A stretch of 64,000 nucleotides of DNA from Candidatus Levybacteria bacterium RIFCSPLOWO2_01_FULL_38_21 (GCA_001782475.1 MFOT01000024.1:42578-106577), one strand, 5' to 3'. Counted from the first letter of the stretch, positions 6,912 to 64,000 are shown. Translations and numbers: made by a program. The notes: generated by a model not told the origin, from the sequence alone.

Positions 6912-9900
6912 ATGAAGTTAAGCAAATTTTTGGCTGTCCCCGCAGTAACTTTTCTATTTTTTGTCTTCTTATCTGGCAGTGCCTATGCTTCTTTCTCTTA
7001 CTCATACGATTCCTCTCCGCCCTCCGCCGACCAGGTAGCTGATTCATTCTGCGCTGGCTCCATCCAGACTTGTTGGAACAGTTCGTCTGTTGGTGTAACA
7101 GATTGTGGAACTGCTTGTACCGGCGGTAACGCCTGGGAAAAGCATGTATATTCAGGCTGTTATTATGTAGCTTTTTTAGGTTATAAGGCATGGCTTCCAT
7201 TTGCATCCGCTACCTGCTCAACCGGGGATAAGTGTACGAGTAGTTGGCCTTATCTAAACGCTGGATATTGCGATTGCTCAGTCGGAGGCATATATAAAAC
7301 CTGCTGTGATACTACGACAGGAAGAGCTGATGGGGCTTGCGTGGCATATGCTGTTGATACCACAAATCCTCCATGGGAAGGTTATTGTCCTGCGGGAACA
7401 GCGACGGAGTTCTGTGGCTTCGGAGGCTATCCTGCCTGCGGAGATGCGGCTTGCGCAAAGTACGCCCCCCCTCCAGATTGTAATACTGGGGTTTCTTGTT
7501 CTGGAGCCTGCAGCGCGCCGGCAAATACCTGCTCTACAAATAATGGAACGCAAACAAGCTGTGTCTATACAGCCTACAGCGGAGGAGGATCCTGCACTCA
7601 AACAACTGCTCCCAACCAACAATGCACAGTTAATAATTGTTCTGCGGGATATACTTGCCAGAGTGGCATTTGTACGGCAGGACCGAATCCTCCTACTGCC
7701 GCAATCAACGGACCCACTTCCATTACACTTGGCCAATCAGGCAGCTTTACTGCAACCGCCAACCAAGACTCAACCAGTTCGCTTGCATCCGGAGAAATTT
7801 ATTGGTCGCCAACCGGTTCTCAATCCTGGACTCTTCTTAATCCCGTAGCTGCGCTTTCGGGCTCAACTGGGTCATTTTCCAGAACGTGGACTCCGACTGC
7901 TACCGGTACTTACTACGTAGTTGTCAACGCTTACAATGTAAATGGCCAACAATGCACAGGTAATCCTTTCGGGATTGATCCCGGCTGGGTTAATTGCGGA
8001 TCAAACGATGCTGTAACTGTCACAGTCACAACTGTAGCAGCAACCCCAACCCCAACTCCCACACCTGCCTCTTCATGCAATGCTGCGTGCATTGCAAGTG
8101 GTTATTATTATGGAATATGCCAAGGTGCATGCGGTGGAAACTATGATGGATCGCCTAGTCAATATGAATGTGCAAGTAATATTGGTGCACCTCTTTGCTG
8201 TTGTTCACGTGTGCCAGCCACTCCAACTCCAACCCCGACTGGCGCTCCAACTCCCACTCCAACTCGAGCTCCCTCAACATACGACATTTCTGGTACTGTT
8301 TGGGTAGATACCAATGGGAATGGGTTTAAGGACATATTAGAAGATGGATTCCAGAGCGCTCGCATAACCATAACCGGCGGTGCTTTTAGGAATACAGACA
8401 ACTCTGGATTTTACCTTTTTTCAAGTCTAGCTTCCGGAACATATACAATTACTCTTACTGTACCTTCTGGCTATATCTTAACCACTTCAAATCCTGTCAC
8501 CAGAACCCTCCCGAACAATGCCACAGCTAATTTTGGGATACAACCCCTATCAACCATCTCTGGAACTGTATTTGTGGACACTAATGGGAGTGGGGCTAAG
8601 GACACAGGAGAACCGGGATACAGCGGGGCTACCCTAACCGGACCCGGCGGTGAGACTGATACTACAGGCGCCAGTGGATCTTACGGTTTTCCAGGTCTAG
8701 CTTCCGGAACCTATACAATTACTCTTACTGTACCTTCTGGCTATATCTTAACCACTTCAAATCCTGTCACCAGAACCCTCCCGCCCGATGCCACAGCTAA
8801 TTTTGGGATAAGATTCAACAAGCCAGACCTGGTTGTCTCAAATCTTAGTGTCCAGTCGGTTGCCGCAGGCCCGATAACACCAAGAGATGGCAGTAGCTTT
8901 GATACCAATGGCGGCTCGGGCGCAAGTTGGTCAAATCCAACCTATGCTCAGACTTCCAATAGCCAGCGCGCCTCTGTTTCACTGGACGGTAATCCCAGTT
9001 CCCGTTATCTTAAGGCTCAAGGCTTTGGTTTTAACATTCTACCCGGTTCTACCATCAATGGTATTCTCGTTGAGGTAGAACGCAGGGCCGAAGAAGAAGG
9101 CTGGGGCGGCAATCCCAGAATAGTAGATGATGTCATCAGACTTGTCAAAGCCGATGGAACAATTGGCGGAAGTAACAGAGCAGGCAGTAGTTACTGGCCA
9201 GAATCGGATGCTTATACAAGCTATGGCTCAGGTACCTACCTGTGGGTCCTAACCTGGACACCGGCCGATATCAATAATTCCAATTTTGGGGTGGCAGTCT
9301 CGGCCAGGAATGAGGGTGATGACGCAATTGCATACATTGACCATATCCGTATCACGGTGTATTTAGCTTCCGAAGCAGGAGAGTCGTTAGAAGCAGTCTT
9401 TACCTTAAAAAATAACAGTTCTATTACCACGCCACCCGGGGTTAATTTTAGGATTGATCTTTGGCCGGACCGCACCAGCTCTCCCAATCTTGGAGAACTA
9501 AGTGATTGTACCCCGACCCCTTGTAAGATAGACCAAACAGAAATGGCCGCCAATGAACAGAGATCCGTGACTATACCTTTCACCGCTCCCTTAACCGCTG
9601 GAACAAAGACGGTCCAAATTTTGGCTGATTCGCCGGACGTCATTGACGAAATGGAGGAGTTAACTAATAATAGGATATCTAAAATCTACTTTGTTACTGC
9701 ACCCCCAACATACACAATTTCTGGAAATGTATTTGTAGACGCCGATAAAAATCGGCTCAAGAATGGAGGGGAGACAAACTACACAGGCGCAATCACTATT
9801 TCCTCAACAGAAGGAACTGTATCTGCTCCCTCTGGTACTGGGGTTTACACTGTAGACGGTTTAATAGAAGGAACATATACAATTTCTTACACAGATCTTC

Positions 9901-10904
9901 CTTCTGGATATCAACTAACATATCCTCTAAACGGTCCCCCGCCCTCTTTTACGGTTACGGTTGGGGCATCTTGTTCTGTTGGCGGTTCAAACAGCGCAAC
10001 TTGCGGTGGAGGAAGCATTTCAAATCTTAACTTTGGCATAACCAATTCAAATCCATGGATCCAGTCAACCTGTACAGATATAAGATTTGATACTGGCTTT
10101 GATGACCCCATACCAATAACCGCTGATCCTGTTCTCTGTGGCGGGCCAAATGCATCTATCAATGCATCTATTTCAGTCGTTTGCACAACTCCGGGAATCA
10201 TTATGTCTGGAGACAGCTCATATTCCTTTGGTCAAGGACAGGCCTCATCTACGAACTGGGTCGTGGGGGGAACTACCTATCCGGAAGTTTTTGCTCCCAC
10301 AAGAGGAGGCGGCTTTGCAACTTCTTACGCATATGTCTTATCTGTTATAAAACAAGCAGGTCTAACACCAACGGATCTTTCAACCGTATGTACCCTTTCA
10401 AACTGCACTTTACCCGCAGGATTTTCTCACGGTCTTTACAAGGCAAATTCTGATCTCTACCTTAACGCTTTTACATTCCTAGCCTCATCAAATTATGTAA
10501 TCTTGGTCAACGGAAATCTCTACATTCGCGGTAAAATCCTCGTACCAAATGGTTCAACCGCAACCTTTATTGTCTCTGGCAACATTTATGTAGACCAAAC
10601 CGTAGGAGAAGCAGTTATTTCATCAACAACCCCTGATATTGAAGGCTTCTATAGTACGGATAAGAGTTTTATAATCCAGGGTACAAACGACTGCATGGTG
10701 GGAGCGGATTTACGACTAAATGTTGCCGGCACAATTGTAGTTAATGCAGGACTTACGGGCGGATCATTCCAAAACTTAAGAGATCTTTGCGGAGGAAATC
10801 TTTCCTGTCCTGTATTTTCGATATCAGAAAGGCCAGATTTTATTCTAAATGCTCCGGAGGTAATAAAAAGACAGAATGCAATTTATCAGGAAGTAGCACC
10901 CTAG
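6912..10904 (+). CDS. giant secreted/cell-surface protein (1330 aa) with Cys-rich N-domain, PT linkers and tandem Cna-B/SdrD-B-like repeats
   Basis: Signal peptide MKLSKFLAVPAVTFLFFVFLSGSAYAS; about 40 Cys in the first 400 aa; linkers ATPTPTPTPASS and PATPTPTPTGAPTPTPT; two near-identical repeats ...SGTYTITLTVPSGYILTTSNPVTRTLP..ATANFGI... (DNA 8404-8530 and 8665-8800). Confidence 0.6.
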   Translation: MKLSKFLAVPAVTFLFFVFLSGSAYASFSYSYDSSPPSADQVADSFCAGSIQTCWNSSSVGVTDCGTACTGGNAWEKHVYSGCYYVAFLGYKAWLPFASATCSTGDKCTSSWPYLNAGYCDCSVGGIYKTCCDTTTGRADGACVAYAVDTTNPPWEGYCPAGTATEFCGFGGYPACGDAACAKYAPPPDCNTGVSCSGACSAPANTCSTNNGTQTSCVYTAYSGGGSCTQTTAPNQQCTVNNCSAGYTCQSGICTAGPNPPTAAINGPTSITLGQSGSFTATANQDSTSSLASGEIYWSPTGSQSWTLLNPVAALSGSTGSFSRTWTPTATGTYYVVVNAYNVNGQQCTGNPFGIDPGWVNCGSNDAVTVTVTTVAATPTPTPTPASSCNAACIASGYYYGICQGACGGNYDGSPSQYECASNIGAPLCCCSRVPATPTPTPTGAPTPTPTRAPSTYDISGTVWVDTNGNGFKDILEDGFQSARITITGGAFRNTDNSGFYLFSSLASGTYTITLTVPSGYILTTSNPVTRTLPNNATANFGIQPLSTISGTVFVDTNGSGAKDTGEPGYSGATLTGPGGETDTTGASGSYGFPGLASGTYTITLTVPSGYILTTSNPVTRTLPPDATANFGIRFNKPDLVVSNLSVQSVAAGPITPRDGSSFDTNGGSGASWSNPTYAQTSNSQRASVSLDGNPSSRYLKAQGFGFNILPGSTINGILVEVERRAEEEGWGGNPRIVDDVIRLVKADGTIGGSNRAGSSYWPESDAYTSYGSGTYLWVLTWTPADINNSNFGVAVSARNEGDDAIAYIDHIRITVYLASEAGESLEAVFTLKNNSSITTPPGVNFRIDLWPDRTSSPNLGELSDCTPTPCKIDQTEMAANEQRSVTIPFTAPLTAGTKTVQILADSPDVIDEMEELTNNRISKIYFVTAPPTYTISGNVFVDADKNRLKNGGETNYTGAITISSTEGTVSAPSGTGVYTVDGLIEGTYTISYTDLPSGYQLTYPLNGPPPSFTVTVGASCSVGGSNSATCGGGSISNLNFGITNSNPWIQSTCTDIRFDTGFDDPIPITADPVLCGGPNASINASISVVCTTPGIIMSGDSSYSFGQGQASSTNWVVGGTTYPEVFAPTRGGGFATSYAYVLSVIKQAGLTPTDLSTVCTLSNCTLPAGFSHGLYKANSDLYLNAFTFLASSNYVILVNGNLYIRGKILVPNGSTATFIVSGNIYVDQTVGEAVISSTTPDIEGFYSTDKSFIIQGTNDCMVGADLRLNVAGTIVVNAGLTGGSFQNLRDLCGGNLSCPVFSISERPDFILNAPEVIKRQNAIYQEVAP

Positions 10905-53985: not shown

Positions 53986-54954
53986 TCAGAAGCCTCCGAC
54001 AACTGTGACTTCTCCTTTGATTGGAGGGTGGGAATCATATCCTTCCAAAGTGAAATCTTCAAATTTTATATCGTCTATGTCTTTTAATTTTGGATTGATT
54101 TTCATTTTGGGAAACGGCCGTGGTTTTCTTTTAATTTGCTCTTTGACCTGATCAAAATGATTGCTGTAGATATGCGCATCTCCAAAGGTGTGAACGAAAT
54201 CCCCGGGAGGATAACCCGTCAGATGGGCAAAAATCATCGTAAAAAGCGCATAGCTTGCTATATTAAACGGAACGCCCAAAAAAAGATCAGCGCTTCTTTG
54301 ATATAGCTGGCAGGAAAGCCGGCCATTTATTACATTAAACTGGAAAAGCGTATGGCAGGGCGGAAGAGCAACCGATTGTCCCGGCTTTGCCATTTCATAT
54401 ACAAACTCCGGATTCCAGGCAGAAATTACAATATGCCGCCTCTCCGGTGTTTTTTTTATCTTTTGAATCGCCCATTTTACCTGATCGATTTTCCGCCCAT
54501 CTGATGCCGGCCATCTTCTCCACTGGACTCCATAAACAGGCCCCAATTCTCCATATTTTTTAACAAACGGATGATCGGATGATGAGCTTTTTATTTTTAC
54601 AACATACTCTTCCTGCGTCAATATTTTTGAGTTTTGAGTTTTGAGTTTTGAGTTTTGGGCTACTTTGTAGCCCTTGTATCCCCATTCATCCCAAATATGA
54701 ACATCGTTATCAACTAGATATTTTATATTTGAATCGCCTCTTAAAAACCAGATCAACTCATGCAAAATTCCCCTAAGAAAAACTTTTTTCGTAGTCAAAA
54801 GAGGAAAACCGGTTGATAAATCAAAGCGAATTTGCCTTCCAAAAACACTCCTAAACGTTATTCCGGAATTAAACTCATGCTTCTCAAACCCATTTTCCAT
54901 GACATCTGTAAGTAAATCTAGATATTGATATTCCGGATGAAGATTTTTTTTCAT
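53986..54954 (-). CDS. thyA: thymidylate synthase
   Basis: [25 protein letters not shown] (catalytic Cys); in-frame ttttgag heptad-repeat insertion ([11 protein letters not shown]). Confidence 0.9.
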
Positions 54955-55490
54955 ACTTGTTTCTCTCTTTTTAGCACGCTAACGCGTCCTCCCTGCCACT
55001 GACCACGATATAAACTTCCTCCACCCAAAACCTGCTCAAATTGGGCGTGAACAAACCGTGCTCCCATCTCAATTGCAACCGGAATAGGCCCTTCATTTTT
55101 AAGCCCGAACGTTAATTTTCCTTTATATCCGGGTGCGACATTTCCCGTCCTTAGGAAAAGACCCGATCGAAAAGTCGTTGTCCTTGGCTTAAAATTAATT
55201 GTGATATCAAACGGCGTATTCACGCTTTCTATTGTCGTGACAAGATAAAAATCCCCAGGCTTGATTAAAATACTCCTGTTCTCTCCCTCTACATATTTTT
55301 CAACAAGCTTGATATCTGCGGTTTTACGGTGGGTTTCTCCAAGGAAAGCATCGCCCGAAATTTTATAGACTTCTCCAAGTCTCAAATCAAATCCGGCACC
55401 TTCAGGATTCTCAAGCTCTCTTTTGGATAAACCCTCGACGAGTTTTTTCGTCTTTACTAATTGCAATAATTTTCTCGGCCCAAGTACCAT
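54951..55490 (-). CDS. dCTP deaminase/dUTPase-fold protein (divergent Dcd paralog)
   Basis: [42 protein letters not shown] matches the dUTPase-superfamily beta-barrel motifs. Confidence 0.6.
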
Positions 55491-55496
55491 AAATGC

Positions 55497-55622
55497 TAAA
55501 TTCTAATATCTAAATCCTAAATAAATTCCAATTTTCAAGATAGCAAATTCGAAACAGTTTTGTATTTATAAATTGTGATTTTGATATTATTTAGGATTTC
55601 GGATTTAGTGTTTCGAATTTAC
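55497..55622. mobile_element. empty MITE-like element (paired inverted repeats, no cargo)
   Basis: Arms ctaaattctaatatctaaatcctaaata (left) and tttaggatttcggatttagtgtttcgaattt (right) match the arms flanking the four-helix-bundle gene at 10917-11385. The right arm supplies the last 9 codons and the stop of tmk. Confidence 0.5.
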
Positions 55623-56283
55623 CGATAATATCGGCTGTTACTTTCTCCTGCGACCTTTCTCCATCTATCGCAGTTATTTCTTTAGAAAATTTCTTTGCGA
55701 TCCAGTCATATCCTGCTTTTATATTTTTAAGTTTTTCCGCTGTTTCGTAATATTCCTGTTTCTTTCTCATTTTAGAAAGTCTTGATATTGCAGTAGTCTC
55801 TGAGACATTAATATAAAAAGTTACATCCGGAACTATAAACTGGTGGTACATAGAAATAATGCTTTCCGAAACTAGAAGAATTTCTTCATTTTTTAATTTA
55901 TGCAGGTCTTCTTTTTTGTCTGAAATCCCATATGCAACTGACGACCAAAAACATCTATCCGAAATTACGATTCTACCTTTTTGAAGTGGTGGCTCAACAA
56001 CAGTTTTCATATGAATCGCTCGGTCTGCAGCAAAAAGGTATTGAACAGAGACCGGTGGCAGATCTATCTTTTCTTGTATAAAATCGTGAATTAGAGTCCC
56101 TATTGGAGGGATGTTTGTAGGTTCTTTTGTATAAACTACCTTCTTTTTTTTATCTTCGAAGTATTTTTTTAAAATAGAAGCTTGAGTTGTTTTACCAACC
56201 CCATCTATTCCTTCAAAAGCAACATAAACCCCTTTATATGGATTTTTTCTAAGCTCGATATCAAAAGAAACATGATGCTTCAT
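55591..56283 (-). CDS. tmk: thymidylate kinase
   Basis: VAFEGIDGVGKTTQ P-loop, DR(C/Y) motif. Confidence 0.85.
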   Translation of the reverse strand: MKHHVSFDIELRKNPYKGVYVAFEGIDGVGKTTQASILKKYFEDKKKKVVYTKEPTNIPPIGTLIHDFIQEKIDLPPVSVQYLFAADRAIHMKTVVEPPLQKGRIVISDRCFWSSVAYGISDKKEDLHKLKNEEILLVSESIISMYHQFIVPDVTFYINVSETTAISRLSKMRKKQEYYETAEKLKNIKAGYDWIAKKFSKEITAIDGERSQEKVTADIIGKFETLNPKS

Positions 56284-56849
56284 TTTTCTTCGTGAATTTT
56301 GCTCTCATCCGGCTCTCTTTGCGTCCTGTATTTTGCGGTTTTCTTTTGCGAATATGGAGTTTCTGCCTCGCTTGACAACTGCTCAAAACTCATTGCGCAA
56401 ATTCTCATGCCGGGGGTAAGCTTTACTGCCATTCGTCCCAAATTGCCAAGCTCCAAAACACACTTCCCGTCCCACCCCGCATCAAAAATTGACGCTGTTG
56501 AATGTACAACTATCCCAAGCCTACCCAAGGAGGACCTACCCTCAAGCCTTCCCATCATATTATTCGGAATTTTAACTCTCTCAAGCGTCACTGCCAAAGC
56601 AAAATCCCCGGGCTGCATAACAAATCCCTCGCCGTTTCTAACAACCACTTTTTTGGTTATTTCACTTGAGAAATTTTTTTTGGAAGGATCGATATACGGA
56701 TATTTGCTATGTTCAAAAACGCGAAAAACATTTCCCAACCGAAGATCAATAGAACAAGTTCCCAGCTGTTTGGAAAAATCAGGAAGAGGTTTTATCACTA
56801 TTTTTTTTGTTTTAATAGCTTTTTTAAGATCTCTATCCGACAAAACCAT
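56280..56849 (-). CDS. dcd: dCTP deaminase
   Basis: MVLSDRDLKKAIKTKKIVIKP ... GRLEGRSSLGRLGI ... canonical Dcd. Confidence 0.8.
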   Translation of the reverse strand: MVLSDRDLKKAIKTKKIVIKPLPDFSKQLGTCSIDLRLGNVFRVFEHSKYPYIDPSKKNFSSEITKKVVVRNGEGFVMQPGDFALAVTLERVKIPNNMMGRLEGRSSLGRLGIVVHSTASIFDAGWDGKCVLELGNLGRMAVKLTPGMRICAMSFEQLSSEAETPYSQKKTAKYRTQREPDESKIHEEK

Positions 56850-56953
56850 AGCAAAAGTTTAACACCAAAACTAAGAATTTAAAAGTAGTAAATTTGATAC
56901 CGCTTGACAAGTTAATAAAAATACCCTACTGTGTTTATAGAACTTATCTAAAA

Positions 56954-57628
56954 ATGGCAAAACAAGCAAAAACAAATCGATCAAGAACATTAGGTCTCTT
57001 TATACTATTTTTAATCGTCGCCGCAATCCCCCTGACCGTTATAATTTCCCAACAGCAACAGGAAACCCGCCAGCGTGCCGCCGGAATAATTGCAACTCCT
57101 GCTCCGGGATCTCGTCCTCCCCCCTGCTATATACCGCAAATAATTATTGACAAAATCAGATCCTCTACCAATAATCAAAATTTAAATACTCAATGGAGAC
57201 GACTCTTTGGCTATGGAGATGTAGATCTGGATGGATCTGTCACCGCTAGGGATGCTGAGCTTGTTTTGAAATTCGTTGTAAATTCTTATAAACTTACTCC
57301 CTTGCAAATAGAAGCAGCAGATGTAAATGGAACGCCAAATGTTCTTTCGGGAAAGTCAGATGTTGATTCAGTTGATGCGCTGAAGATACTCAGATATACT
57401 ACCGGTCGTTTTGAAAAAACTTTCCCCGTCTGCGGCAATTGGCAAGTAACTCCCACCTGTCGGCCTAGACCCCCATGTCTGGACGCAACACCAAAGTGTC
57501 TTATTGCAGAAACAGCTGACATGTGTCCACGCCCGACGCCTACCTGCCGTCCGAGGCCAGCCTGTTTGGATGCAACTCCAAGATGCTTGATTGCGGAAAC
57601 TTCAGATATGTGTCCCCGAACTAAGTAA
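56954..57628 (+). CDS. membrane-anchored dockerin-domain protein with tandem Cys/Pro-rich C-terminal repeats
   Basis: TM helix then ETRQRAAG; YGDVDLDGSVTARDAELVLKFVV ... ADVNGTPNVLSGKSDVDSVDALKILRY are two dockerin-like Ca-binding repeats; duplicated TPTCRPRP(P/A)CLDATP(K/R)CLIAET(A/S)DMCPR. Confidence 0.5.
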   Translation: MAKQAKTNRSRTLGLFILFLIVAAIPLTVIISQQQQETRQRAAGIIATPAPGSRPPPCYIPQIIIDKIRSSTNNQNLNTQWRRLFGYGDVDLDGSVTARDAELVLKFVVNSYKLTPLQIEAADVNGTPNVLSGKSDVDSVDALKILRYTTGRFEKTFPVCGNWQVTPTCRPRPPCLDATPKCLIAETADMCPRPTPTCRPRPACLDATPRCLIAETSDMCPRTK

Positions 57629-57707
57629 AAAAGCTCTCCGATTTTAGTACATATTCATAATTCTATTGGATATGTAACAACAATTTTAGAGAACCCAAGA
57701 TCAGGTA

Positions 57708-59618
57708 TTGACAAAGAGCGCAGTTTTGCGTACCTTTAAAGATATAGGGTTTCTTATGGATAAGGACACAAAAGAGAATTCACCCGCCAAGCCTGCCTCA
57801 GAACCTGTTTCCTATGCGAGAAGCAATAATTTCTTACCGAAATTCTTCGATAAGTTTTTCTCCTTTTTCACCAAAAAAACTGTTGCCGGTCTTGCTATTT
57901 TAGTTTTAGTAATAGGGATCGGAGCAACAATAATTGCAGTCCAGCGCTCAACAGAAATAAGACAACGAGCCGCTACCTCAACCTATTCTCTTTCTGGAGG
58001 GCAGGGAGATCTTTCGGGAAATGACAAACAGCACAAGATTCTTTATGCTTGGCAGCCCCCCAGCAGTCCTGGAGGGCAATATCATATTCTACTTGTCCGT
58101 AAAAACTATAATCCAGAGTGGAATAAGTTTGATTACAGAGTTGGCGAAATAGGAGGTTTGTCATTCATAACATTTACCTATGGCCAACCTTCCAGTACCT
58201 ATAAAGCGGCAATTTTCAACGGTCTCACAGGTGCAATACTTTCCAATGTAGTCTCTGTTACCACCGCTGCTACCTCAACACAAGGAGCACCTGATCTAAT
58301 TATTCAAAGTCTTACTCTTTCTACCTATAATCCTACTCCTGGTCAAACAGTCACTACCACTGTTGTTATCAAGAACCAAGGATCTGTCGCTGTAAACTCC
58401 CTGTTTGCCACTGCTTTGTGGGCGGATCGAGGTTCTGCTCCACCCTGTAATGATAAAACTTATAACCAGAGGAAATCAACTTATAATTCGCTGGCAGCAG
58501 GCGCAACTCAGACATTAGATATGCCTTTTTTTGCGCCCTCAACTAATGGATCAAAAACCGCCTGGGTTTTCGTTGATGACAGCTGTATAATCTCAGAAAG
58601 TAATGAGGGAAATAATACAGCCAGTGTAAACTATACTGTCGGGGCTTCAGCCATAAATTATACCGTCAGTGTCTATGTTTTTGTGGATAAAGATGGAGAT
58701 GGGATAAAAGATGGATCCACCGACCCTTATTATCTTAACGCAACAGCAACTCTAACAGGTGGAGGGTTAAATATTACACGTTCTATGCCTAATGGAAGTT
58801 ATGCTTTTAAAGTACCCGCTGGAACTTATACAATAACTGTCCCCACTCCTGCCGGATACAGGGCGACTACTCCCAATCCTACCTCAAGGACAGTACCGCT
58901 AGATGCCTACGTTGGTTTTGGTATACAGCGCGCACCAACTCCAACCCCAACTCGAGCCCCAACCAGAACACCCACCCCAACTCGTACACCTACTCCAACC
59001 GTGCCTCCTAATCAGACCCCAACTCCAACTGGAGTTGTAACCCCAACCCCAGGCGGAGGAACTCAATTTGCCCTATCTATAGGCCTTGACGGAATAGGAA
59101 GTGTAGGAGATAATGCCACTCCAAATGATAGCAGCGGCTCAAACAAGAATCCCACACGAACAACAAGAAACGCTGTGGTACAAATTTATAATGCGACAAA
59201 CAATCTAGTTGCATCAACAAGCGGAACTGTTGCTTATAATTCCACTCAAGGAATATTTATCGGCAATGTAAGCCTAGGTACAAACACAGATATACAAAGT
59301 GGAAGTTTCATTGTAAAAGTGAAATCAGACGGGTATCTTAGAAGGCGAACTCCAGGAATTCAAAATGTAGTATTGGGGCAAGTCAATACTATACCACAGA
59401 TTAATCTTGTTACCGGAGATATAAATGGGGATAATGCAATAAATATCCTCGATTACAACATTCTCATAAGCTGCTCCATCTTCTCAACCGATAATCATGC
59501 AACCTGCAATAGTAACAGCCAATACGCTACGCTTTCTGACCTTGATGATAACGGAGCAATTAATCAATTTGATTACAACTTGTTCCTAAGAGAACTCTCT
59601 GTCCAAAACGGAGACTAA
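57708..59618 (+). CDS. membrane-anchored surface protein with Cna-B-like domain, PT linker and a C-terminal type-I dockerin
   Basis: TM helix then EIRQRAAT; VFVDKDGDGIKDG...GSYAFKVPAGTYTITVPTPAGY (Cna-B/SdrD-like); APTPTPTRAPTRTPTPTRTPTPT linker; C-terminal GDINGDNAINILDYNILIS ... SDLDDNGAINQFDYNLFLREL dockerin repeats. Confidence 0.55.
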   Translation: MTKSAVLRTFKDIGFLMDKDTKENSPAKPASEPVSYARSNNFLPKFFDKFFSFFTKKTVAGLAILVLVIGIGATIIAVQRSTEIRQRAATSTYSLSGGQGDLSGNDKQHKILYAWQPPSSPGGQYHILLVRKNYNPEWNKFDYRVGEIGGLSFITFTYGQPSSTYKAAIFNGLTGAILSNVVSVTTAATSTQGAPDLIIQSLTLSTYNPTPGQTVTTTVVIKNQGSVAVNSLFATALWADRGSAPPCNDKTYNQRKSTYNSLAAGATQTLDMPFFAPSTNGSKTAWVFVDDSCIISESNEGNNTASVNYTVGASAINYTVSVYVFVDKDGDGIKDGSTDPYYLNATATLTGGGLNITRSMPNGSYAFKVPAGTYTITVPTPAGYRATTPNPTSRTVPLDAYVGFGIQRAPTPTPTRAPTRTPTPTRTPTPTVPPNQTPTPTGVVTPTPGGGTQFALSIGLDGIGSVGDNATPNDSSGSNKNPTRTTRNAVVQIYNATNNLVASTSGTVAYNSTQGIFIGNVSLGTNTDIQSGSFIVKVKSDGYLRRRTPGIQNVVLGQVNTIPQINLVTGDINGDNAINILDYNILISCSIFSTDNHATCNSNSQYATLSDLDDNGAINQFDYNLFLRELSVQNGD

Positions 59619-59688
59619 AATGAATACTACCAATACTACCAATAAACCAATATTGGAATATTTGTAGTATTTGTAGTATTCTTATCTT

Positions 59689-60294
59689 ATGTCCAGACGA
59701 ACTATTATATTAATAATAATACTTATAGGAATAACTGCGATTCTTTTGGCAATTGCATTAACGCCAAAGCAGGCTCCAGTCCCGGTAAAACAACGGCCAA
59801 CTCCCAGCATTTCTTATGCGCAAACCACGCTTAGGATAAGTAACAATCCTGCTTTGGTGAATTCTACCTCCTCAGCAGTTCCTCTTTACTCAGCAGACGT
59901 AACAATAATAACCGGAGACAATAAAGTAAATGCCGTTCAACTTGAGTTAGCTTTTGACGTAGCTCGTCTTTATAATGTCGATATAAAACCAGGTTCTCTG
60001 TTCCAAAATTCGGTGGAGTTGCTTAAAAAAGTAGATAATCAAAAAGGGACTATTTCTTATGCTCTTGCAGGAGGACTTGGTCAAAAGGGAGTGACGGGAG
60101 GAGGAACCGTAGCTGTAATAACTTTTCAGGAAAAAGGAAAGGCTGGAGAAATTGCGAGTATAAATTTCCTGCCAAAAACTTTGGTAACAGCTCAGGGCAC
60201 AGATAAATCGGTTCTTAAAACCGCAGTCGGCGCTACATTCCCAATTCAGGAATCGCCATCTCGGTTAAATACCGGCACTCCATCCGCTCAGTAA
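59689..60294 (+). CDS. membrane-anchored cohesin-domain protein (mini-scaffoldin)
   Basis: N-terminal TM helix; beta-sandwich sequence VNAVQLELAFDVARLYNVDIKPGSLF...GTISYALAGGLGQKGVTGGGTVAVITFQEKGKAGEIASINF follows the cohesin pattern (v.a.q..l.yD...l..v...g.l....g.g..g.G.la.itF). Confidence 0.5.
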   Translation: MSRRTIILIIILIGITAILLAIALTPKQAPVPVKQRPTPSISYAQTTLRISNNPALVNSTSSAVPLYSADVTIITGDNKVNAVQLELAFDVARLYNVDIKPGSLFQNSVELLKKVDNQKGTISYALAGGLGQKGVTGGGTVAVITFQEKGKAGEIASINFLPKTLVTAQGTDKSVLKTAVGATFPIQESPSRLNTGTPSAQ

Positions 60295-61031
60295 CCGCCT
60301 TTTTTAAAGCGCGCGTTTTTAAGAAAAGGGGCGTATAGATCTTCCTTAAGTATAATTTTAATTTTTCCCAAATCTTTTTTTGTTGGGCTTTTTTTTTGAA
60401 AAACAATACCGGGTATTCTTTCTATTACTACAATCGGAGTCTGCTCGTTCCCCTCTCCCATAACCATTACTGCCGCCGCTGCCAAATTGTCTACAACACT
60501 TAACTTTGTAAACTCAAGTTTTCTTCCAAAAATATCCTTCGTCCCAATATAATTTTTAAGCGGCTCAAACCCGCTGTAGGCGACTGAAAATCCTGTTACT
60601 CCCCATCTTAAAGGTGTAGTCCTGCTGTCGGTTATAATCACTCCCACATTTTCAAGGTTGAATCTTGATTTGAGCCATTTTCTAATCCGATTTGCAGATT
60701 TTTGCGGATTTTTTGGCCAAAGAATATAATAACCATTACCGTTTGATTCATCAATCCCTGCACTTGCAACAAGCGCTCCCCCTGTTATGGTAAGACTTAC
60801 GTTGTACGGATTTTGCGATCTTGGAAGATAATATTGCGATTCTCTTTTTATCAACTCGTCCTTATCAATTGTTCCTATTTTGATAATTCGTCCCTCTGTT
60901 ATGGCAACAATTTTTGATGCAATCGCAACAACTGATTTCTCAGAAAGCTTTTTCACATAGCGATCTAAAATCCTGAAGATGTCCTTATCTTTTTGGGTAA
61001 TTTTATGAGTCTTAATCCCCGTAACTTTCAT
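60288..61031 (-). CDS. CofE-like gamma-glutamyl ligase family protein (F420-0:gamma-glutamyl ligase homolog)
   Basis: IITDSRTTPLRWGVTGFSVAYSGF ... DNLAAAAVMVMGEGNEQTPIVVI matches CofE-family motifs. Confidence 0.6.
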   Translation of the reverse strand: MKVTGIKTHKITQKDKDIFRILDRYVKKLSEKSVVAIASKIVAITEGRIIKIGTIDKDELIKRESQYYLPRSQNPYNVSLTITGGALVASAGIDESNGNGYYILWPKNPQKSANRIRKWLKSRFNLENVGVIITDSRTTPLRWGVTGFSVAYSGFEPLKNYIGTKDIFGRKLEFTKLSVVDNLAAAAVMVMGEGNEQTPIVVIERIPGIVFQKKSPTKKDLGKIKIILKEDLYAPFLKNARFKKGGY

Positions 61032-61520: not shown

Positions 61521-61585
61521 TGGGTCGGGATGGAATCGAACCATCTACCTGTCGCCTCAGGCGACCGTTCTGCCCATTGAAACAG
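61521..61585 (-). tRNA. tRNA-like gene, 3' portion (positions ~8-73, encoded CCA follows at 61518-61520); lacks the 5' acceptor strand; aberrant anticodon arm
   Basis: Minus-strand reading: CTGTTTCAATGGGCAGAACGGTCGCCTGAGGCGACAGGTAGATGGTTCGATTCCATCCCGACCCA + CCA. The T-arm GATGG-TTCGATT-CCATC is canonical. The anticodon arm is a perfect GTCGCC-TGA-GGCGAC hairpin, giving a 3- or 5-nt loop. Confidence 0.5.
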
Positions 61586-61657
61586 TGGGCACGGATAGAA
61601 TCGAACTATCCACCTCTTCTTTATCAGAGAAGCGTTCTACCAATGAACTACGTGCCC
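61586..61657 (-). tRNA. tRNA-Ile (anticodon GAU)
   Basis: GGGCACG-TA-GTTC-ATTGGTA-GAAC-G-CTTCT-CTGATAA-AGAAG-AGGTG-GATAG-TTCGATT-CTATC-CGTGCCC-A forms a canonical cloverleaf; CCA is not encoded. Confidence 0.8.
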
Positions 61658-61890
61658 AAAATTTGCTTTAAAAGCTCTCTTCCTTTTCCGCTTTTCAAAA
61701 ATCTTTCCCTACGACTTGCCCCTAATTTTGTATTATATGTCTCCTTATAAATTAACTCAAACGGTCCAGCCTGGCTCGTATATTTAGTTTGACCGTTATT
61801 ATGTTCAGCAATTCTCCTGTTTAGATTATTTGTCGAACCGGTATAATGCCTACCGTTCTTCAAGCTTTTCAAAACATAAACGTACCACAT
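61648..61890 (-). CDS. GIY-YIG nuclease domain protein (stand-alone URI-domain endonuclease)
   Basis: MWYVYVLKSLKNGRHYTGSTNNLNRRIAEHNNG covers the GIY..YIG, Arg and Glu/Asn catalytic motifs. The ATG lies 6 nt after the breakpoint of the tRNA-like 5' fragment. Confidence 0.65.
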   Translation of the reverse strand: MWYVYVLKSLKNGRHYTGSTNNLNRRIAEHNNGQTKYTSQAGPFELIYKETYNTKLGASRRERFLKSGKGRELLKQILGT

Positions 61891-62445: not shown

Positions 62446-62578
62446 AAATCTTAATAAGACCTATGATCCCAGCAATTATTCCGCCAAAAATAGCTATATT
62501 TTTGAGTTTTTCAGTAAAACTTGGCTGTCCCTCTTTCATAATTTTTAATTCTAAGCTTTGAATTCTAAATTCTATTAG

Positions 62579-62651
62579 AGGCGCGAAGGGGACTTGCACC
62601 CCTGAATGGCTGTTCTGCAGACAGCTGTGTTAGCTACTTCACCACCGCGCC
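62579..62651 (-). tRNA. tRNA-Cys (anticodon GCA)
   Basis: GGCGCGG-TG-GTGAAGTAGCTAACAC-A-GCTGT-CTGCAGA-ACAGC-CATTC-AGGGG-TGCAAGT-CCCCT-TCGCGCC-T. U73 discriminator and G7-U66 are typical of tRNA-Cys; CCA is not encoded. Confidence 0.7.
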
Positions 62652-63283: not shown

Positions 63284-64000
63284 ATTTCGATAACTTGGGT
63301 TGTTTCGAGTTCCCACTAGACAAGCGGTTTTCCCGCATCTAGCGAGCCCCTGTTCATCTGTGATTTTAACTGTCGAATCTTCTTATATCCTTCATTACTT
63401 TTATGTTCTCCATTCTTTACCATTAAAGCGATTCGCCGAAAGAGTAAATAATTTTTAAGCTTTTTGCTATGAAGCTGGTTCTTATCAAAAAAAGGTATTA
63501 TTTTTTCATGTAAATCTTTTTGAGCAGTTACGCCAAATCTGTAACAATTTTTTTGATTTGCACGATATTCCTTTTGATAATATACTCCACCGCAATCAAA
63601 AAACTTCTGAACTTTCTTGAGTAATGGAAGTTCGTCTTCCCGAAGTTTTATGAAAAAGTGCATTTCTACTCGAGATTTATGAGTTCTGTTTGGAACTCTA
63701 GTCGCTACATAAAAACACCCTTCTCCATCAGTTAATCCTACGATATAATCATCAGATAAACGATTAGGTTTTTCCCTTCCCCCGCTAAGCGGGGTACTAT
63801 GGATCTGCTGACTTCTCTTCTTCAAGTTCATCTACCTTGAGAATAGATAAACAATTACCCAATTGTCAAGAAGAGATCTCCTAAGGTCACTTACCAAACA
63901 ATTCCTGGCATCCTAATTAGACTTTTTATATGTTCTTCCCTTAGACACACCTGATTAAGGTCGAACGTCTATTTTTTATTAGGCTGTCATTTGCTTCAGG
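63284..64000 (-). mobile_element. 16S rRNA intron (probably group I) inserted near E. coli position ~1400, continuing beyond the window
   Basis: The expected TGTGTACA following CCGCCCGTCA is replaced by more than 700 nt of non-rRNA sequence that contains a LAGLIDADG ORF. Confidence 0.6.
63316..63831 (-). CDS. LAGLIDADG homing endonuclease encoded within the 16S intron
   Basis: DYIVGLTDGEGCFYV is a single LAGLIDADG motif in a 171-aa protein (homodimer type). Confidence 0.75.
   Translation of the reverse strand: MNLKKRSQQIHSTPLSGGREKPNRLSDDYIVGLTDGEGCFYVATRVPNRTHKSRVEMHFFIKLREDELPLLKKVQKFFDCGGVYYQKEYRANQKNCYRFGVTAQKDLHEKIIPFFDKNQLHSKKLKNYLLFRRIALMVKNGEHKSNEGYKKIRQLKSQMNRGSLDAGKPLV

Follow-up and report, generated by a model that had tools for sequence, protein, structure and literature searches.

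Attachment to other cells is the presumed way of life of candidate phyla radiation (CPR) bacteria, or Patescibacteria, and little is known of how they build their surface proteins and hold them in place. A three-gene locus in a 64-kb stretch of DNA from Candidatus Levybacteria bacterium RIFCSPLOWO2_01_FULL_38_21 (the window below; all positions are counted from its first letter) raises the question of whether such a cell can hold proteins at its surface through cohesin-dockerin contacts. Its three open reading frames (ORFs), here called A, B and C, all lie on the + strand and encode two dockerin proteins followed by a cohesin, the order in which an initial annotation of the sequence had read them; Pfam Dockerin_1 in A and B and Cohesin in C score above the curated cut-offs that we applied (22.9 and 24.1 bits, respectively). 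We consider it likely that the three genes form a surface-anchoring cassette in which adhesin-like cargo is held on a membrane cohesin. The genes are as follows.

56954..57628, + strand: gene A, a small exported protein of 224 amino acids with a leader, an A-type dockerin and two 4-Cys units (ORF, Pfam Dockerin_1)
57756..59618, + strand: gene B, a large exported surface protein, 620 amino acids from its ATG (ORF, orthologue starts, public gene call)
59689..60294, + strand: gene C, a membrane-anchored protein with a single cohesin, 201 amino acids (ORF, Pfam Cohesin)

The start of A at ATG 56954 is backed by orthologues whose N termini open MAK..., and a protein identical to A is present in ENA (P0070). 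For B, the initial annotation had taken the whole span 57708-59618; the ORF does open at TTG 57708, but orthologues (MDENTEKT..., MDEHVEPN...) and the public gene call of 620 amino acids place the start at ATG 57756. Every peptide string that the annotation cited was found in the translations. The nearest named homologues belong to Candidatus Levybacteria/Levyibacteriota, in the Microgenomates group of Patescibacteria.

The anchor of the proposed cassette would be protein C, which matches Pfam Cohesin (PF00963) over residues 74-179 at 39.1 bits (E 1e-9). Its homologues form 69 clusters of about 200 amino acids, most of them annotated PF00963 and, where the source is named, from Levybacteria. 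An AlphaFold2 model built from 44 homologues has a mean predicted local distance difference test (pLDDT) score of 87.5 over its full length and, in blocks of 10 residues, means of 85-98 within the cohesin domain; it divides C into three parts.

59695..59760, + strand: N-terminal transmembrane helix, residues 3-24 (AlphaFold2, DSSP)
59761-59823, + strand: Pro-rich linker of low model confidence, residues 25-45 (AlphaFold2)
59824..60243, + strand: cohesin beta-sandwich, all-beta, residues 46-185 (AlphaFold2, Foldseek, profile search)

In the model, the domain is predicted to adopt the nine-stranded, flattened beta-sandwich (jelly-roll) of cohesins, and the top 46 matches in a Foldseek search of the PDB are all cohesins (best the type I cohesin 6kgf_C, E 6.7e-8). 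The initial annotation had called C a transmembrane-anchored cohesin and had staked that call on the modelled fold; the profile score, the helix and the model all bear it out. Within the cohesins, C lies closer to type I. The type I cohesins 1g1k_A and 2vn5_A have target-normalised template-modelling scores of 0.77-0.78 to the C model in Foldseek and are also the best PDB matches of the C family profile, at 6e-5, with type II cohesins weaker, at about 3e-3; DSSP assigns C no helix after residue 24, whereas in a type II cohesin an additional alpha-helix and beta-flaps would elaborate the sandwich. A single-sequence phmmer search of C against the PDB gave insignificant PDZ (Disks large) matches and one cohesin at E 0.19. 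No other cohesin match lies within the window, and C bears a single cohesin. Because the N-terminal helix is highly conserved (T5 and L12 invariant; T16, L19, L20 and A23 at least 90% conserved) and no cleavage motif lies close by, we infer that it acts as a signal-anchor. A cleaved, soluble cohesin was also considered and rejected, the candidate site lying about 20 residues from the helix.

The partner of this cohesin would lie at the C terminus of protein B, whose parts are given here in order.

57882..57974, + strand: leader, transmembrane helix (VAGLAILVLVIGIGATIIAV) followed by QRST and EIRQRAA (57954-57974) (motif scans)
58287-58625, + strand: CARDB passenger domain (Pfam, 46 bits)
58674-58886, + strand: SdrD-B-like passenger domain (Pfam SdrD_B, 24.9 bits, under the cut-off of 29.7 bits)
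58929..59060, + strand: Pro/Thr-rich linker of 44 amino acids, RAPTPTPTRAPT...TPGGG (sequence; short-period DNA repeats)
59061..59408, + strand: X-module, a predicted beta-sandwich packed against the dockerin (structure model)
59409..59615, + strand: B-type dockerin; both calcium loops are canonical, and a Cys pair between its two repeats is conserved (Pfam, family alignment)

B matches Pfam Dockerin_1 (PF00404) at 25.2 bits and has both calcium-loop repeats expected of a dockerin, loop 1 reading D-I-N-G-D-N-A-I-N-I-L-D and loop 2 D-L-D-D-N-G-A-I-N-Q-F-D. Across an alignment of 55 B-family sequences, every sequence has D at loop positions 1 and 12 of both repeats, positions 5 and 9 are D or N in 50-55 of them, and the Cys pair between the repeats (C138, C149) is invariant, so that the calcium-coordinating D/N pattern on which the initial annotation had made its dockerin assignment depend is kept on careful alignment. 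What had been described as a textbook type I dockerin is a dockerin, but not a free type I one. The C-terminal 185 residues of B constitute a recurrent module, present in 84 protein clusters, that models as one rigid unit (pLDDT 95.9; predicted template-modelling score, pTM, 0.90), a beta-sandwich followed by a three-helix dockerin. By Foldseek, its three best PDB matches are the type II X-dockerin (XDoc) chains 4u3s_B, 2b59_B and 4wi0_B (E about 1e-5), the sole further match below 1e-3 being the S-layer protein 8qox_B (6.1e-4). The module family profile also finds the CipA XDoc (E 6.6e-7), the alignment extending from the last X-module strands through both dockerin repeats. Because of these X-dockerin matches and the profile match to CipA, we conclude that the C terminus of B, with its adjacent, packed X-module, is a homologue of the XDoc dyads that anchor cellulosomes to the cell surface. 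Ahead of the dyad, B consists of an N-terminal region without an assigned domain, the CARDB domain, the SdrD-B-like domain and the Pro/Thr linker. Of the Cna-B-like domains claimed at first, only the sub-threshold SdrD_B match was recovered. Pfam and NCBIfam detected no catalytic domain and no carbohydrate-binding module (CBM) in A or B, which agrees with the original statement that the dockerin proteins lack glycoside-hydrolase catalytic domains, and the NCBIfam scan of A, B and C gave no meaningful match of any kind.

The pairing of the two modules recurs among relatives. A cohesin-first scan of species-representative genomes yielded 32 loci, nearly all from metagenome-assembled genomes of Levybacteria or other Patescibacteria; cohesins, XDoc modules and A-type dockerins were scored in these loci with local hidden Markov models (HMMs). 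In 22 of the 28 species loci that could be assessed, the transmembrane-cohesin gene has one to three dockerin or XDoc genes as immediate same-strand neighbours, and no XDoc gene was found elsewhere in the flanks of the cohesin-first loci. An XDoc-first search of metagenomes gave 78 loci, 55 of them with enough downstream sequence; a short cohesin gene is present in 31 of the 55, usually after one to four XDoc genes. A survey of the architecture had been proposed along with the initial annotation, and it shows cohesin/dockerin adjacency to be conserved across Levybacteria from both search directions. In one locus (L033), two cohesin/XDoc pairs alternate, the cohesins being 41% and the XDoc modules 42% identical to each other, as expected for specific pairs that have co-diverged. 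The A-type dockerin is present in few loci only, and it is the XDoc-type dockerin of B that appears, from these comparisons, to be the conserved partner of the cohesin.

The cargo carried by XDoc proteins in relatives is mostly of a binding or adhesin type (VWA, SdrD_B, CARDB, fn3-like, CBM60), as in L033 7549-10422, which combines CBM60, VWA and SdrD_B, and in L030 1005-3953, with VWA and SdrD_B. Elsewhere, the cargo of L024 1491-4022 includes a GH79 beta-glucuronidase-like catalytic domain (3vny_A, E 5.6e-29), and a GH79C domain also occurs among relatives. Because some relatives dock GH79 or CBM60 domains, the system cannot be called purely non-enzymatic for the clade as a whole. Some XDoc proteins additionally bear a weak cohesin-like domain (19-21 bits in Pfam, below the cut-off; E 1e-5 to 1e-10 with the local HMM), among them L030 3811-5268 and 5285-6904 and proteins of L050, L052, L057, L091, L092, L104 and others; their composition suggests adaptor-like proteins that could form chains.

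Protein A contributes a different dockerin and a repeated cysteine-rich unit.

56987..57082, + strand: leader, hydrophobic helix (...LFILFLIVAAIPLTVII) followed by a Q-rich stretch and ETRQRAA (57062-57082) (motif scans)
57206..57415, + strand: A-type dockerin, residues 85-154, with a canonical loop 1 and a 6-residue insertion in loop 2 (Pfam, PDB sequence matches, family alignment)
57449-57529 and 57536-57616, + strand: tandem 4-Cys units, TPTCRPRPxCLDATPxCLIAETxDMCP (sequence comparison)

A matches Dockerin_1 at 31.2 bits (E 2.5e-7), the match being confined to profile positions 1-40, and by sequence its dockerin matches the solved dockerins 8x39_A (2.2e-6) and 4uyq_B (2.4e-3). Of the dockerin-like pair of repeats that the initial annotation had seen here, the first is canonical (D-V-D-L-D-G-S-V-T-A-R-D); the second is not. 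D1, N3, D9 and D12 are kept there, but position 5 is T, and an insertion of six residues separates position 8 from position 9. That insertion is conserved in the alignment of the small A-type dockerin family. BLASTP gives no alignment between the A and B dockerins, so the two do not belong to one class; the A dockerin, a dockerin by HMM, appears to represent a small class of its own. The two 4-Cys units of A, which follow the consensus PTPTC[RK]PRPACLDATPRC[LM]I[PA]ETSDMCP, are identical at 24 of 27 amino acids and at 72% of nucleotides, and their codons differ by 16 synonymous and 3 non-synonymous changes, which argues for purifying selection on the peptide. Tandem Repeats Finder did not detect them, because their DNA is only 72% identical. 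The unit is found in more than 100 otherwise unrelated, mostly transmembrane-anchored proteins of Patescibacteria, where it occurs once, usually near the C terminus, and is 83-100% identical over about 29 amino acids. An exhaustive search places it in 244 representative clusters, with nine matched stretches in one protein of 2337 amino acids. Neither Pfam nor NCBIfam has a model for it, and the unit is an undescribed mini-domain.

A and B also share the motif E(T/I)RQRAA after the transmembrane helix, as noted in the initial annotation: ETRQRAA in A and EIRQRAA in B closely follow the hydrophobic helix, and the motif is absent from the rest of the window. As a whole, the leader has E-[ITLV]-R-Q-R-A-[AS] after a hydrophobic helix and a Q-rich stretch, and almost every dockerin protein of the cassettes in relatives has it. 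The motif is borne by 30 ORFs of the collected loci, 26 of which encode dockerin proteins and one a cohesin-like protein, the other three being small genes inside those clusters; a few proteins without a dockerin carry the leader as well (P0122). Two classes of helix, one of AAIPLTV... type and one of IGxGAxIIAV type that follows some 40 residues of cytoplasmic N-region, have the motif in common. The motif is thus real and conserved, and its presence on the dockerin proteins of many genomes is consistent with the sorting or processing signal first suggested. Its fit to signal peptidase I, which classically requires small residues at -3 and -1, is poor: the c-region of A and B is about 12 residues long and ends ...R-Q-R-A-A, so that -1 would be A and -3 Q or R. 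Some relatives have variants (..S-A-A, ..T-A-A, A-Q-A) that come closer to the rule, and cleavage at the motif would be a plausible reading of its position. In contrast, the secreted protein encoded at 6912-10904 in the same window begins with a signal peptide of the ordinary kind (...SAYA|S). That gene (+ strand) encodes 1330 amino acids with three SdrD_B-like domains, a Cys-rich N-terminal region and no dockerin, and falls within the stretch of highest GC content in the window (0.47 versus about 0.38).

Among relatives, the cassette usually sits between a divergent block of dCTP-deaminase, thymidylate-kinase, dCTP-deaminase and thymidylate-synthase genes and a convergent F420-ligase-like gene. 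In the window, two paralogous dCTP-deaminase-like genes bracket thymidylate kinase beside thymidylate synthase at 53986-56849 (- strand), divergent from the cassette, and an F420-0:gamma-glutamyl-ligase-like gene at 60288-61031 (- strand) converges on the cohesin gene with a 7-nt overlap; synteny of both is kept across Levybacteria. No obvious Shine-Dalgarno sequence precedes any of the three starts. A promoter and terminator scan of 56600-60600 gave counts not above those of shuffled sequences and no + strand terminator between genes A and C, and both results are uninformative about co-transcription. The B-C intergenic region (59619-59688) contains two 9-nt tandem repeats, AATACTACC in 3.4 copies and TATTTGTAG in 2.4 copies, immediately 5′ of the cohesin start codon. 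Farther downstream, the following elements lie outside the cassette.

61585-61890 and 62578-62651, - strand: small ORF with a GIY-YIG domain (80 amino acids, 60.7 bits) abutting tRNA-Ile(GAT), with a 10-nt overlap; tRNA-Cys(GCA) lies about 1 kb beyond tRNA-Ile(GAT)
63316-63851, - strand: LAGLIDADG homing-endonuclease ORF (Pfam, 73.7 bits) near the end of the window, overlapping a marginal Rfam group-II-intron D1-D4 match (38.2 bits; gathering score, 35), and so possibly an intron-borne endonuclease

How might the three proteins work together? We propose that the N-terminal helix of C would fix the protein in the cytoplasmic membrane and leave its one cohesin exposed just outside. B would be exported, its leader probably being removed at or near E-I-R-Q-R-A-A, and its X-module and dockerin would then dock as a dyad on the cohesin of C in a calcium-dependent manner. 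The 44-residue Pro/Thr linker would act as a stalk from which the CARDB and SdrD-B-like domains face outward; the presumed topology relative to the cell wall would leave them placed for an adhesive function. A would be a small accessory or adaptor protein that adds the second dockerin class and its two 4-Cys units. In function, such a cassette would be the non-covalent equivalent of cellulosomal type II XDoc anchoring, or of anchoring by sortase, put to the display of binding proteins instead of enzymes. Binding of the B-type XDoc by C is, on balance, probable. Several observations weigh against this arrangement. The cohesin is without a neighbouring dockerin gene in 6 of the 28 species loci, and 24 of the 55 XDoc loci are without a neighbouring cohesin. 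The cohesin resembles type I more than type II and has no helix in its sandwich, and known XDoc dyads bind type II or type III cohesins. Cleavage of the leader is uncertain, because R-Q-R-A-A misfits the -3/-1 rule and B has some 40 cytoplasmic residues before its helix, and A and B may therefore stay anchored in the membrane.

This last point, carried further, would have the leader uncleaved and the dockerin proteins N-terminally membrane-anchored for good, forming a complex in cis with C, tethered at both ends in a single membrane, or a link between two cells or between cell and host. Besides the departure from the signal peptidase rule and the long N-region of B, the hydrophobic helix (AAIPLTV) shows a high conservation that would be unusual in a signal peptide due to be discarded, and the helix of the cohesin is strongly conserved likewise. 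We nevertheless think this unlikely, since a Pro/Thr stalk immediately before the XDoc fits best with the C terminus as the anchored end, the motif is conserved at the outer end of the helix, as a processing site would be, and the dockerin proteins of all systems characterised so far are freed by signal-peptide cleavage. The mismatch between a type I-like cohesin and a type II-like dyad can also be taken to mean that the gene products are neighbours that do not bind, the dockerins having another ligand (a host surface, a glycan or a cohesin encoded elsewhere) and C having an unrelated role or being freed at S-Y-A|Q. A44, in the ...YAQT stretch of C, is indeed nearly invariant, and many non-cellulosomal dockerins reportedly have no known cohesin partner. 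Same-strand adjacency, however, is kept in both search directions and in dozens of genomes while flanks and cargo vary, paralogous pairs alternate in L033, and the YAQ site, some 20 residues past the helix, is too far away for signal peptidase I; we regard the absence of binding as quite improbable.

The GH79 catalytic domain in the L024 cargo, together with the CBM60 and GH79C domains of other relatives, raises the alternative of a minimal cellulosome-like system for polysaccharide degradation, in which the cohesin would tether carbohydrate-active enzymes. We give this very little credence: A and B have no catalytic or CBM match, there is no multi-enzyme scaffoldin because each anchor protein bears one cohesin, and the cargo of relatives is mostly VWA, SdrD_B, CARDB and fn3-like. 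A more ambitious proposal, and a doubtful one, is that the cassette belongs to a dedicated Levybacteria pathway of sorting and anchoring built from interchangeable tags. The leader would be read by a specific enzyme, the XDoc on its cohesin would do the work of sortase and LPXTG in other monoderm bacteria, and variable passengers (adhesins, occasionally enzymes, sometimes cohesin-like domains forming chains) would be swapped between constant ends, with the 4-Cys unit as a second anchoring or binding tag and A as a bridging adaptor. Our preferred reading remains the simpler one of a cassette that holds adhesin-like cargo on a membrane cohesin. It is in line with the self-contained surface module, as opposed to a cellulosome, that the initial annotation had envisaged; HMM matches, fold, the single transmembrane cohesin, the lack of catalytic domains and gene adjacency all agree with such a module, within which binding would take place as set out above.

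Comparison with known systems places the cassette nearest to those that attach proteins to the cell surface. In Clostridium (Acetivibrio) thermocellum, the XDoc of CipA binds cohesins of SdbA, OlpB and Orf2p (PDB 2b59, 3kcp, 5g5d). As in that type II anchoring, the partner cohesin here is on a cell-bound anchoring protein. The anchor, however, is a single N-terminal transmembrane helix instead of S-layer homology (SLH) repeats, the cohesin is type I-like, the docked protein is adhesin-like instead of a nine-cohesin scaffoldin, and the host is a CPR bacterium with a reduced genome. The hallmarks of a cellulosome are likewise missing: each anchor protein has one cohesin in place of a multi-cohesin scaffoldin, and carbohydrate-active catalytic domains or CBMs are absent from A and B and occur on the dockerin proteins of some relatives only. 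Ruminococcus flavefaciens ScaE is a surface anchor with a single cohesin that takes up the type III XDoc dyads of CttA and ScaB, CttA being a non-catalytic, substrate-binding adhesin. ScaE-CttA would be the closest functional analogue. ScaE is fixed covalently to the wall by sortase at a C-terminal LPXTG motif, and the R. flavefaciens XDoc differs in the geometry of its X-module insertion; our searches turned up no homology to that system, although none was aimed at it. The resemblance to sortase-anchored adhesins of the MSCRAMM (microbial surface components recognizing adhesive matrix molecules) type is one of layout, with the C-terminal end fixed at the envelope after a Pro-rich segment, N-terminal binding domains exposed and an SdrD-B-type stalk. 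There is no LPXTG motif, attachment would be non-covalent, and the cassette is not a member of that system.

Cohesin- and dockerin-like modules are also known outside cellulosomes in Bacteria and Archaea, for example in Archaeoglobus fulgidus and in toxin complexes of Clostridium perfringens. Like these, the modules described here belong to an organism without a cellulosome, are present in low copy number and carry cargo other than glycoside hydrolases; they differ in forming an operon-like cassette conserved across a candidate phylum, and in having an XDoc dyad, a common dedicated leader and a transmembrane-anchored cohesin. Among Patescibacteria, SEML1_0315 of the Saccharibacterium Southlakia epibionticum is an essential envelope protein with a dockerin domain, for which a role in adhesion to the host or in the targeting of glycans has been proposed, and the word cohesin does not occur in the text that describes it (Wang et al. 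2023, PMC10633639). By domain description, it is likewise a dockerin-bearing envelope protein of a Patescibacterium, though of another lineage. Full-text literature searches that paired dockerin or cohesin with CPR, Patescibacteria, Microgenomates or Levybacteria turned up no account of the cassette, which is set apart by its transmembrane-helix anchor, its use of a type II-like XDoc together with a type I-like cohesin, its mostly non-enzymatic cargo with a dedicated leader and its conservation in a CPR phylum.

Compact and possibly orthogonal cohesin-dockerin pairs of this kind could serve protein-assembly engineering. If the pairing holds, the principle of XDoc-cohesin anchoring would extend beyond cellulolytic Firmicutes, with the unusual pairing of a type I-like cohesin and a type II-like XDoc. 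For Levybacteria themselves, the cassette offers a clade-wide hypothesis of how surface proteins may be held in place, in which a membrane cohesin would capture XDoc-tagged adhesins.

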